Of a stretch of 64,000 nucleotides of DNA, positions 1-64,000 are shown in pieces. The notes under the pieces are model-generated. The model worked only from the letters and a program-made list of their open reading frames with translations. It was not told the DNA's origin and searched no databases. Numbering within the stretch: the first letter of the stretch is position 1; each line of letters begins with the position of its first letter. Origin of the DNA: Eledone cirrhosa (lineage: Eukaryota); assembly GCA_964016885.1 (NCBI GenBank), contig OZ024743.1, forward strand, positions 71,610,001-71,674,000, in the 5' to 3' direction. Made by a program: the position numbers and the translations under genes.

Positions 1-219
1 AAATTAGTAATAAGTATTGGTTAGTATTCAGTTTTAGTTTTAAGTTTTTACCGGTTGCGCATTTCTAATGCTTTTCAAAAATAATTTTGAGATAGAGAGC
101 TCGTGAGCAAACATCACGAGCGCTCTATCTCAAAATTATTTTTGAAAAGCATTAGAAATGCGCAACCGGTAAAAACTTAAAACTAAAACTGAATACTAAC
201 CAATACTTATTACTAATTT
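1..219. repeat. Near-perfect inverted repeat (106-bp arms, 7-nt loop); may extend beyond window start
   Basis: 1-106 is the reverse complement of 114-219 with one mismatch seen; loop gcaaaca. Confidence 0.95.
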
Positions 220-322
220 ATACTTATTCCTAATTAAACTATTTTTCACTGGGAAAAATTTGTCAGCATTTTCTTTTCCTTTTTACTAATATATATATAT
301 ATATATATATGTATACATCATT

Positions 323-454
323 ATTTAATATAGCATTGTCTTCTACATGACTAGAACTGTTTCAGTCGTATGAAATCATAAGGAATGCGCATTCTTGATG
401 ATTTCATAGAGGTGAAACAGTTCTAGTCCCATAGAAGTCATTTCTATATTAAAT
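323..454. mobile_element. Fold-back PLE-like mini-element with degenerate hammerhead core (same family as 31300-31424)
   Basis: Imperfect inverted repeat between (TA)n tracts; tTGATGA...GAAAcagttctag on right arm; clear similarity to 31300-31424. Confidence 0.6.
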
Positions 455-60500: not shown

Positions 60501-61769
60501 AGATAGTCAACATATTGATTTCTAAGGTGTAAATTAGTTAGGTTTATAATATTTGAAGCAGAATTTTGAAGTCAAACATTAGTAGATTATTAATTACATT
60601 ATAACTAAATTAAAGTTAATAACGTTATGGTATCAATATTAGGAGATGAATTTAGTAATAGGGAAAAGAAACCCAAATAAAAATAAAATAAAGTATTACA
60701 TCGGTAGTAGCATATAAATTATATGTTAACTAAATTAAAAATTATATATTTATTTCAATAGTATACGTTAATTAGTATATGTTAATTAGGTATACAATAC
60801 ATAAAGCAGATATTGTATTTCATCAATAGCATAATATAATTATATGCAAATAGAAATCAAAATTAATACGCATACATATACATATACATACACATACACA
60901 TATACATACATATACACACACATATATATACATATATATATATATATATATACATATATACACATATATACATACATACAGATACACATACACAACACAC
61001 ACATATACATACACATATACATATACATATCTTTTTCAAAAAATTTGCACAGAATATATTAACTAGGTATATATCCAAAACACATCCCATTCTATGATTA
61101 CATGACATTCTGCAATTCGTCTGTATAAGGATACTAATTTTAAGCAAATTAAAATTAAAGTTTTAGGTTGATTAAAACTAAAACCAAATAATAAATATAT
61201 TTCCAAAATGTATATTAATTAGGTCTATAATACTAAAAATTCTTTCTCCGTCATTGGATACATGATATTATTTTGTTATATTTTATCTGTAAAAGAATTA
61301 TAATAAAAGGTTTAAATAAATTAAAATTAATCTATAAATTAAATTACTAAGTATATATTAGTAATATTTAAAGGTTTTTCACAATTTATGATTACATAAT
61401 ATTTTCTCATCTGTAATAAAACATTAATTAAATTAAATTTATAGGTTAACTAACATTTAAATTAAATTAATTTCTAGAATAATGTTATTAATTAGGTTTA
61501 TAATATTTAAATGTTTTTTTTAGTTTATGATTACACGATATAATTAATTCCTGTCGTTTATTTAATAAGATATCCCTAGACTTCATTATTTCAAATAGTT
61601 CTTGGGAACATAATCTACATTCCTTTCTATTATTTTGATAAGGGGTGGCTCTTTTGAGCACACTCCAGGTCAAATCATATTTTATATTCTTATTTTTATA
61701 ACTATTGATTTTTTCTGCTAGAGATGTTGTATTAGCCAGTGCGGCATTTTTAAAACTATGTTTGTGGGT
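57510..61769 (-). mobile_element. 5'-truncated Naiad-type PLE: GIY-YIG C-terminus, ~4-kb microsatellite-rich 3' region, hammerhead, ending at (TA)n
   Basis: EN C-terminal ORF 61769 to 61488; hammerhead at 57850-57696 in the same orientation; left boundary inferred from (TA)n at 57451-57507. Confidence 0.7.
57696..57850 (-). ncRNA. Type I hammerhead with 10-bp stem I and very long stem II
   Basis: ttcattattt-CTGAAGA-cggc-gtatatatgtgtta-ggtatgtatatt(~50 nt)aatatgcatacc-aatta-taacacatatatac-ccta-GAAA-cgatcg-TT-aaataatgaa. Confidence 0.8.
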
Positions 61770-64000
61770 GAAAGGATGTAACTGTAGAAACAAAACAAAC
61801 TGCCCATTAAAAGGGAATTGTCTTGTTAACAACATAGTCTATAAATGTAATGTTAAAACTAAAGATTCTATTTGCTCATATATAGGAGCTACCTCTAACA
61901 ATTTTAAGACAAGGTTTAATACCCACAAACATAGTTTTAAAAATGCCGCACTGGCTAATACAACATCTCTAGCAGAAAAAATCAATAGTTATAAAAATAA
62001 GAATATAAAATATGATTTGACCTGGAGTGTGCTCAAAAGAGCCACCCCTTATCAAAATAATAGAAAGGAATGTAGATTATGTTCCCAAGAACTATTTGAA
62101 ATAATGAAGTCTAGGGATATCTTATTAAATAAACGACAGGAATTAATTATATCGTGTAATCATAAACTAAAAAAAACATTTAAATATTATAAACCTAATT
62201 AATAACATTATTCTAGAAATTAATTTAATTTAAATGTTAGTTAACCTATAAATTTAATTTAATTAATGTTTTATTACAGATGAGAAAATATTATGTAATC
62301 ATAAATTGTGAAAAACCTTTAAATATTACTAATATATACTTAGTAATTTAATTTATAGATTAATTTTAATTTATTTAAACCTTTTATTATAATTCTTTTA
62401 CAGATAAAATATAACAAAATAATATCATGTATCCAATGACGGAGAAAGAATTTTTAGTATTATAGACCTAATTAATATACATTTTGGAAATATATTTATT
62501 ATTTGGTTTTAGTTTTAATCAACCTAAAACTTTAATTTTAATTTGCTTAAAATTAGTATCCTTATACAGACGAATTGCAGAATGTCATGTAATCATAGAA
62601 TGGGATGTGTTTTGGATATATACCTAGTTAATATATTCTGTGCAAATTTTTTGAAAAAGATATGTATATGTATATGTGTATGTATATGTGTGTGTTGTGT
62701 ATGTGTATCTGTATGTATGTATATATGTGTATATATGTATATATATATATATATATATGTATATATATGTGTGTGTATATGTATGTATATGTGTATGTGT
62801 ATGTATATGTATATGTATGCGTATTAATTTTGATTTCTATTTGCATATAATTATATTATGCTATTGATGAAATACAATATCTGCTTTATGTATTGTATAC
62901 CTAATTAACATATACTAATTAACGTATACTATTGAAATAAATATATAATTTTTAATTTAGTTAACATATAATTTATATGCTACTACCGATGTAATACTTT
63001 ATTTTATTTTTATTTGGGTTTCTTTTCCCTATTACTAAATTCATCTCCTAATATTGATACCATAACGTTATTAACTTTAATTTAGTTATAATGTAATTAA
63101 TAATCTACTAATGTTTGACTTCAAAATTCTGCTTCAAATATTATAAACCTAACTAATTTACACCTTAGAAATCAATATGTTGACTATCTTTGGTTTAGTT
63201 AACATATGATTAATGGTATACTTATTTATTTTGAGATGCATAGATTTCGTATTTCCTAGCACTGAAAATATGTAAGAACATACATTGAATTAAGATACGG
63301 AAAATATTATATGTTTCTTGAAACATATATTTACTTTGATCCCCTTCTCCAAACCCCCCCCTTTCCCCCATACTATTATCATCTGTATTTGTAAGAGTCT
63401 ATGTATGAATATATATGTAGGTAGGTGTCTATATAGGTTTGGGTATTTATATCTAAATATAAAAATACATATATGAGCATGCAAATATGAATGTAAGATT
63501 GTGTGTGTATATATGATTGTACATACATATGTATGTATATATATGTATATATATGCATTATATATGTATGTGTATGTGAATGTGCTGTATGTATATGTGT
63601 ATGTATGTGTATATATGTGTATGTATGTGTATGCTTGTATATATAGGAATATATATATGTGTATATATGTATGTATATGTATATGCGTGTATGTATGTAT
63701 GTGTATGTGTGTTGTGTATATATATGTATGTCTCTCTATTTATATGTTTATCTTCGTATCTATGTGATATATGTGTGTGTGTGTGCACGTATGCATATGT
63801 ATGTGTTTGTGTGTGTTTGTGTGTGTGTGTGTATATATGTGTATGTGCGCACACACACATACACATATATATATATATATATGTGAGTGTGTATGTGTGT
63901 CTGTGTGTGTGTGTGTGTGTGTATGTGTATATATATATATATATATATATATGTATATATATATATATAGATATATATATATATATATATATAGGTGTCT
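59691..64000. repeat. Inverted repeat with arms of at least 2.08 kb and a 151-bp spacer (runs off window end)
   Basis: 59691-61769 is the reverse complement of 61921-64000; only a 1-bp G/C-run length difference noticed; mirrored ORFs in the track. Confidence 0.95.
61770..62202 (+). mobile_element. Uninterrupted GIY-YIG endonuclease domain of a 5'-truncated Naiad-type PLE
   Basis: GCNCRNKTNCPLKGNCLVNNIVYKC..YIGATSNNFKTRFNTHKHSF..CRLCSQE..LLNKRQELIISCNH; homologous to 25950-26362; ORF start in the track is an artefact of the inversion junction. Confidence 0.92.

Follow-up and report, generated by a model that had tools for sequence, protein, structure and literature searches.

The 64,000 nucleotides (nt) of the Eledone cirrhosa genome analysed here, hereafter the window (GenBank assembly GCA_964016885.1, 3.0 Gb; contig OZ024743.1, positions 71,610,001 to 71,674,000 of the forward strand), are AT-rich animal DNA (G+C 32%) with numerous (TA)n runs and many short inverted repeats, which we call fold-backs. 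Most of these fold-backs are real 5′-truncated insertions of Penelope-like elements (PLEs) in (TA)n, and in most of the families tested their centres pile up at a predicted transcription start, not at the stems of a hammerhead ribozyme. A first scan of the window returned 32 candidates. At a score of at least 19 and with a G+C filter, we found 23 inverted repeats (two of them microsatellite), against none in eight out of eight local shuffles; without the filter, each shuffled window gave 6–9 AT-only palindromes, which confounded the control, and it was redone with the filter. The original prediction for the window, which had listed more than 20 inverted repeats of at least eight families, almost all in or beside (TA)n, gave accurate coordinates, and we count more than eight families, mostly (TA)n-bounded. 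Twenty evenly spaced 10-kb loci contain 24 comparable fold-backs, so that the window is rich in them but not unique. Few of the window fold-backs yield a full motif with a hammerhead descriptor, because many copies keep only the 3′ half of the ribozyme.

The anatomy of an inverted, 5′-truncated copy with a tail on one end is common to the families F1, F2, F3, F4 and F8. Matches to exact 3′-end patterns number 20,512 for F1, 15,616 for F3, 23,739 for F2 and 634 for F4; exact patterns were used because the F1 tail by itself gave no matches in a DNA search. Copies were sampled by 3′ anchors, independently of the position of the apex: 119, 59, 52 and 70 anchor matches (F1, F3, F4 and F2, in that order) gave 85, 59, 40 and 51 records, among which 55, 35, 13 and 15 are inverted. 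Short-context matches, mirror records and 30 copies picked by a query starting at the apex were left out. (TA)n borders each of the 55 inverted F1 copies on either side. In 51 of them the inverted arm terminates at a single fixed site (54 inverted arms stop at or near the short site, one at the tail end), while the other arm ends at the tail end.

Long, non-inverted parents of F1, F2 and F3 carry a type I hammerhead by descriptor match, that of F1 having a U3-A8 core and a 40-nt loop II, and compensatory variants of stem I occur in 13, 4 and 1 of 52 F3 motifs. No hammerhead was found in six long F4 copies. The Rfam hammerhead families matched neither the F1 nor the F3 parent at E ≤ 10 and were absent from the window matches listed, and minimum-free-energy folding of the F1, F3 and 40810 motifs did not yield a clean hammerhead fold. 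The F3 parents L107, L108 and L196 have kilobases of TA/TG microsatellite-rich sequence upstream of their pseudo-long terminal repeat (pLTR). A further hammerhead-bearing family (4590–4735, 20335–20525 and 50700–50825) has non-inverted copies only among the 12 contexts listed.

The 5′ ends, of arms and solo copies alike, mostly respect one edge. Comparing the 36 nt upstream with the 36 nt downstream of it, we counted 1 end versus 106 in F1, 1 versus 67 in F3, 1 versus 25 in F4 and 1 versus 6 in F2. Genome-wide, the 5′ ends abutting (TA)n lie upstream of the edge in 7 matches, at the edge in 764 and just inside it in 393 for F1, and in 7, 325 and 36 matches for F3, certain loci being counted twice. 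In short-read contigs aligned with an F1 parent, loose ends are commonest at three places, namely the predicted start, the tail end and the short end; across the F1 edge the short-read depth falls from 4.1 million to 0.11 million (~37-fold) within ~30 nt. Relative to the hammerhead, F1 has the edge within loop II and F3 on the first base of stem I; F4, in which no motif was found, has the edge as well. Of 110 arm ends in F1, 103 fall within the span of the motif, and 0 of these 103 in its 5′ 42 nt.

These positions recur in the window. The tail arm (2831–2968) of the F1 fold-back at 2774–2968 (plus strand) starts exactly at the predicted start, 2831, inside loop II; its inverted arm covers 2774–2830, and the copy retains just the 3′ half of the ribozyme. 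At 15021–15220, where the tail arm is on the minus strand, both arms stop 1 nt past the predicted start. The short inverted arm of the third F1 fold-back (17058–17234, plus strand) reaches 11–14 nt further 5′ than the tail arm, which counts against simple snap-back, and in the F1 subfamily fold-back at 27812–27988 (minus strand) the inverted arm also extends further 5′. An F1 copy without inverted arm (40941–41085, minus strand) likewise has its 5′ end at the predicted start. The apices at 2833, 15160, 17112 and 27935, said to lie in loop II, all belong to F1 and fall in loop II or stem II of the parent motif. The apex placed at a hammerhead near 390 is also upheld: it is that of the F3 fold-back at 320–512 (plus strand), in which position 388 is both the start of stem I and the predicted F3 start. 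A second F3 fold-back (31300–31490, plus strand) has its apex close to the start of stem I. In the F4 fold-back at 1–289 (plus strand), which extends beyond the window start, the apex (110) is near the edge 30 nt after the TATA-like box.

In F1, F3 and F4, the edge is a pyrimidine-A step located 29–32 nt after a TATA-like box. This box is found at −29 to −32 in 9 of 12 F1 parents, 8 of 10 F3 parents (in the other two, at −24 and −37) and 6 of 7 F4 parents, against a background of 3.8%, and a CCAAT word occurs near −87 in F1 and near −84 in F3. In F1, the TATA-like box and the initiator both sit within the 40-nt loop II of the hammerhead. The edge is thus likely to be the 5′ end of an RNA, at the predicted transcription start of the element's own promoter.

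The two arms of a copy are concordant at subfamily alleles, and therefore both stem from one source; 21 apparent discordances at one site trace to the apex-selected copies. Chimeric arms from different source loci were considered and not seen in F1, and the multi-site discordances in F3 resemble alignment shifts. In F1, the tail arm reaches further 5′ in 15 copies, both arms reach equally far in 23 and the inverted arm reaches further in 17; the corresponding figures for F3 are 6, 13 and 16. The inverted arm exceeds the tail arm by more than 10 nt in 12 of 55 F1 and 9 of 35 F3 copies (11 and 7 after checks by eye), without correlation with the age of the copy. The simple snap-back of the original prediction is insufficient because it needs a tail arm that reaches at least as far 5′, yet the reverse is equally common. 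Five F1 copies show inversion without any overlap of the arms. The 55 F1 copies show 52 distinct junctions, and an insert is present at the join in 26 of 55 F1 and 24 of 35 F3 copies (trimmed alignment, partly subfamily mismatch).

We propose, with a probability of roughly 60%, that these short copies, or stubs, are 5′-truncated PLE insertions whose arms run from two fixed 3′ sites and mostly reach one sharp 5′ edge, likely the promoter start, and are likely primed on either side of a (TA)n cut. Transcription from the pLTR promoter (CCAAT near −85, TATA near −30 and a pyrimidine-A start) would yield the RNA, and the nuclease of the element would cut both (TA)n strands. The two DNA ends would then prime on the same RNA: one would use the tail-end site, the second the short-end site, which is only 60–190 nt from the RNA 5′ end, and both cDNAs would run off at that end or stall before it. 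Host end-joining might finally fuse the cDNAs head to head, via short inserts or microhomology. Apex and hammerhead would coincide only where promoter and ribozyme overlap, with the ribozyme stems lending microhomology to a minority of joins. A PLE protein has been reported to cut and extend both strands, with two internal reverse transcriptase (RT) starts that define the tail (PMC11167929; this and the other articles are cited from excerpts). Since the stubs lack the TATA box, we predict them to be dead-end products rather than miniature inverted-repeat transposable elements (MITEs).

A number of observations, given here and in the next paragraphs, weigh against this reading. The start site is predicted solely from motifs and the pile-up of 5′ ends. 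A test for an untemplated cap G failed: the extra G is as frequent at internal starts as at the edge (F3, 40/68 at the edge versus 7/12 at internal starts, p = 1.0; F1, 16/55 versus 7/35, p = 0.46; hand counts at untemplated junctions among the matches listed, which the flanking TG/GA repeats may blur). The short-read contigs may come from runs of the assembly's own sample, three of the four runs being of one sample. F3, F4 and F8 have no firm tie to an open reading frame (ORF). Neither F2 nor F8 has a TATA box at −30, and F2 has no sharp edge either: 2 of 30 arm ends are at the chosen point and 8 of 30 in the hammerhead span, and the apices are broad, with the midpoint in the motif in 2 of 15 copies. 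F2 contains a TATA-less promoter-like region with words resembling ETS, NRF1 and YY1 sites. In F2 copies such as L014, L134, L140, L155 and L158, arm ends cluster at the start of the hammerhead, ~54–72 nt past the YY1-like word; this cluster could be either a second start site or an RT pause. The F2 fold-back of the window (5148–5743, plus strand, tail on the right arm) has a full hammerhead in both arms and its apex ~52 nt upstream of stem I. For F8, whose anchor lies downstream of the motif, the ends accumulate at C-A steps situated ~70 and ~90 nt (range 60–90) upstream of the core; of the 53 arm records that could be used, 7 terminate in the motif (both arms counted; 3 of 56 were dropped as reference artefacts). 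The F8-group fold-back at 54672–54987 (plus strand) has its apex ~42 nt upstream of the core. The apices at 5417 and 54830 had been described as just upstream of a full core, from which these ~52 and ~42 nt depart.

In F1, F3 and F4, the edge follows T-rich sequence and has the YAG form of a splice acceptor. It might thus be another 5′ boundary of the RNA, such as a 3′ splice site or a processing site; in Drosophila virilis, the 5′ end of helix I is the place to which the end of an intron has been mapped (PMC4209133). Yet no class of records with a spliced upstream exon was found among 85 F1 and 59 F3 records, the templated bases −1 to −3 are retained, the F8 edges are not AG and the spacing of the TATA-like box suits a transcription start; we regard such a boundary as quite improbable.

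Microhomology is a further difficulty. Joins with at least 4 nt of microhomology occur in 10 of 55 F1 copies, where 1.2 are expected, and seven of them, with both mirror forms represented, fall in parts of the motif that are self-complementary, so that the enrichment lies in ribozyme stems. This is what one would expect if nascent cDNA snapped back on the hammerhead stems and the ribozyme set the inversion point. Among inverted copies, 51 of 55 in F1 and 32 of 35 in F3 have the midpoint of the apex inside the motif; the microhomology of one F3 join corresponds exactly to stem I, and the F2 arm ends in the motif span can be added to these. The coincidence of apex and hammerhead noted in the original prediction is thus real in F1 and F3, but it does not extend to all fold-backs of the window: no hammerhead was found in the F4 copy with apex 110 (nor in six long relatives), and an 8.5-kb fold-back described below has its apex 3.9 kb away from its hammerheads. 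Nor does the ribozyme explain the edge, which in F1 is in an unpaired loop, past the stems, with no arm end in the 5′ half of the motif, which recurs in F4 without any hammerhead, and which in F8 is 60–90 nt upstream. Most joins have an overlap of 0–2 nt or an insert; microhomology is not enriched in F3 (2/35, P = 0.16) and is also enriched in the motif-less F4 (3/13). The stems thus shape a minority of joins and do not place the apex; that the ribozyme sets the inversion point is contradicted as a general rule, and we consider it very unlikely. Only a few arm ends in F1 and F3 are near the ribozyme cleavage site, too few to judge a peak.

Snap-back combined with one-sided loss at the apex could also yield asymmetric copies. 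In a rival reading, the cDNA would run off at the RNA 5′ end and then prime itself: the fold at its 3′ end is copied into a hairpin, which the nuclease resolves by cutting at two staggered positions so as to leave the tail on one end, while one-sided trimming at hairpin opening accounts for the asymmetric copies. The edge rule is kept, and only the step that makes the second arm differs. Self-priming and nuclease-made tails have been proposed for PLEs (PMC3846280, PMC8557442), the arms are concordant at subfamily sites, and their ends are at most 2 nt apart in 23 of 55 F1 and 13 of 35 F3 copies. Against it, an extra deletion is required in about a third to half of the copies, the five non-overlapping F1 copies have no palindrome, mirror-image microhomology joins number 2 and 2, and the short end also exists as an independent 3′ end, resembling the pattern of RT starts in vitro (PMC11167929). 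Self-priming with one-sided trimming is a fair rival, which we nevertheless consider rather unlikely.

The stubs are short, high-copy palindromes in TA-rich targets, as would be MITEs mobilized by a DNA transposase, or fold-backs created artefactually by the assembly. We found neither symmetric terminal inverted repeats nor copies moved as a unit: the ends are asymmetric, with the tail on one arm, near-identical copies differ in their junction (52/55), and long copies run on into PLE ORFs. With respect to artefacts, the identity between arms ranges from 76 to 100%, due to substitutions, and the same ends and strand-switch joints occur in short-read contigs. We give these explanations next to no weight; the PLE origin by reverse transcription, with no transposase, suggested in the original prediction has held up.

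The 8.5-kb fold-back begins at 57507 and runs to the window end at 64000 and on to ~66057, ~2 kb past the window (minus strand), with its apex near 61845 and a hammerhead at 57696–57850. Its arms align over 4124 nt with 4 mismatches and 6 gaps, (TA)n is present at both ends and a 135-nt tail at one arm, so that the tail/no-tail anatomy is that of the small fold-backs. An assembly artefact was considered for this palindrome and dropped in view of the one-sided tail, the (TA)n ends and the few arm differences. Its interior (window 57507–64000 plus L086 1–2060) is microsatellite- and AT-rich, with 151 central nt present in one arm only, and an Rfam search of 59700–64000 gave no match.

The remaining fold-backs are less readily assigned. 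The F6 fold-back at 27664–27780 (plus strand) has its apex at a CUGAUGA core and no firm parent, a second one (35860–35995, plus strand) also has its apex at the core, and an older fold-back (28186–28399, strand not assigned, arm identity 87%) conserves the 3′ half of a hammerhead and is likewise without firm parent. The corresponding apices, 27710, 35913 and 28290, are consistent with the hammerhead position given to them earlier; a firm parent is missing for this assignment. In the F5 fold-back (36165–36395, minus strand), the GAAAC at the centre, which had been taken for a helix III palindrome at 36300, is produced by the inversion itself, as three non-inverted relatives do not have GAAAC there. 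In the fold-back at 40630–40920 (minus strand), the long arm carries a full hammerhead with long stem II and extends as far as the 5′ strand of stem I; for this apex (40810) and for the 23571 junction, both earlier placed in loop II, the break points are not both there. The F7 fold-back (19592–19790, minus strand) has a tail on one arm and no canonical core was seen in it.

Other repeats contribute to the inverted-repeat content of the window. A tandem array at 42250–43510, with a partly palindromic 17-bp unit, is the source of 24 of the 25 longest matches of the inverted-repeat tool. A repeat resembling a short interspersed nuclear element (SINE) is very abundant, with 92 matches in 200 kb and window examples at 38100–38530, 2140–2320, 12315–12415 and 44985–45160; the inverted pair at 38300 consists of two SINE-like copies, with no hammerhead element. 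The palindromes at 20890–21086 and 22233–22364 are centred on (TA)n, that is, they are tail-to-tail instead of head-to-head. At 54013–54700, ~340 nt are duplicated in tandem, a SINE-like piece included.

A broken, near-full-length PLE extends over 23230–27575 (plus strand), in the order inverted 5′ arm, upstream pLTR, RT and then nuclease-like frames, and 3′ pLTR, the latter with a TATA-like word at 27370 and a long-stem hammerhead. Long F1 and F2 copies follow ORFs that combine RT with a GIY-YIG-type nuclease at the C-terminus. The F2-linked ORF (L203) matches the Pfam domains GIY-YIG (E = 1.2e-4) and RVT_1 (E = 6e-4). The F1-linked locus, L088, is a tandem pLTR–ORF–pLTR arrangement with YRDD and a C-terminal nuclease-like region, read by eye; there was no Pfam match, and a PDB search with the F1-linked protein returned nothing meaningful. 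For F3, a single nuclease-like frame was found 5.4 kb upstream of one copy; for F4, no linked ORF was found within 1.5–6 kb of flanking sequence. RWK and DKT motifs are present in the PLE of the window and RWR and DKT in L088, while the linker of the F2 driver, C-X4-C-xx-C, fits the description of Neptune by motif only. The Hydra clade is defined by RWK and DKT motifs, a C-terminal nuclease, a hammerhead and (TA)n targets, and Naiads by an N-terminal nuclease without canonical hammerheads (PMC8557442). L088, L203 and the window PLE have their nuclease region at the C-terminus, and hammerheads are present. On these motif matches, outside any phylogeny, the drivers look Hydra-type (F1, window PLE) or Neptune-type (F2), and the Naiad RT named in the original prediction does not fit.

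The way in which inverted PLE insertions with a one-sided tail form has been named as an open question (PMC8557442). The sharp edge likely reveals how PLEs build mirror-image ends, and the fixed 5′ limit, together with arm asymmetry in both directions, provides a handle for separating twin priming from self-priming. A large class of MITE-like palindromes in a 3-Gb genome would be explained as promoter-less by-products. Tentatively, and from sequence data, the stubs may be the PLE counterpart of strong-stop cDNA: if the same RNA is primed from either end of a double-strand cut and both copies run off where it begins, stubs would map each family's promoter to the base. A promoter embedded in a ribozyme loop is suggested for F1: with the TATA-like box and initiator in loop II, the promoter-made RNA would begin inside the ribozyme. 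At its 5′ end it would retain just half of the ribozyme, which would preclude self-cleavage at that place; at the 3′ end, the copy made by read-through would be whole.

In L1 twin priming, two target ends prime one RNA, resulting in 5′ inversion, joining by microhomology, and deletions or duplications; the internal priming site is variable, and overlap between the arms is mostly lacking. The E. cirrhosa stubs, by contrast, have a fixed second site and arms that usually overlap, which produces a palindrome.

The overall structure of such insertions is known; the positional rule based on the start site is new, testable and differs from the earlier ribozyme rule. Our gain is hence mechanistic, not a new kind of element. 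In the literature covered, chiefly main texts available without subscription, no start-site edge rule, PLE twin priming or promoter in loop II is described. The original prediction was not aware of a description of its own rule; self-priming at palindromic junctions had already been proposed, and TATA and initiator words in pLTRs reported (PMC3846280). The Penelope promoter has been located in the pLTR (PMC2377424). Inverted 5′-truncated copies, one-sided tails and (TA)n targeting are known for endonuclease-positive PLE insertions (PMC8557442). The units of these PLEs have, as here, a head-to-head inverted pLTR, a tail on one end, (TA)n, a hammerhead in the pLTR, and TATA and initiator-like words (PMC8557442; PMC3846280). 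The excerpts of those articles give no 5′ limit of the arms, whereas a sharp limit at the predicted start is shared here; furthermore, we deal with tens of thousands of ORF-less stubs with tails of ~40–135 nt, against 30–40 there. The Poseidon PLE of Anolis, which belongs to a different clade, cuts and extends both strands in vitro, two internal RT starts define its tail, and insertion does not require ribozyme cleavage (PMC11167929); the excerpts contain no analysis of inverted products or of the RNA 5′ end. The minimal type I hammerheads of metazoan PLEs include the same core variants, U3-A8 among them, palindromic helix III and opposite-strand pairs 100–700 bp apart (PMC4209133); the 40-nt loop II of F1 with a TATA-like box and initiator sets it apart from those described in the excerpts. 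Lastly, non-LTR retrozymes are, like the stubs, non-autonomous, hammerhead-bearing derivatives of pLTRs, but they are head-to-tail tandems with complete motifs (bioRxiv 10.64898/2026.07.22.740005), whereas the stubs are head-to-head and often carry half a motif.

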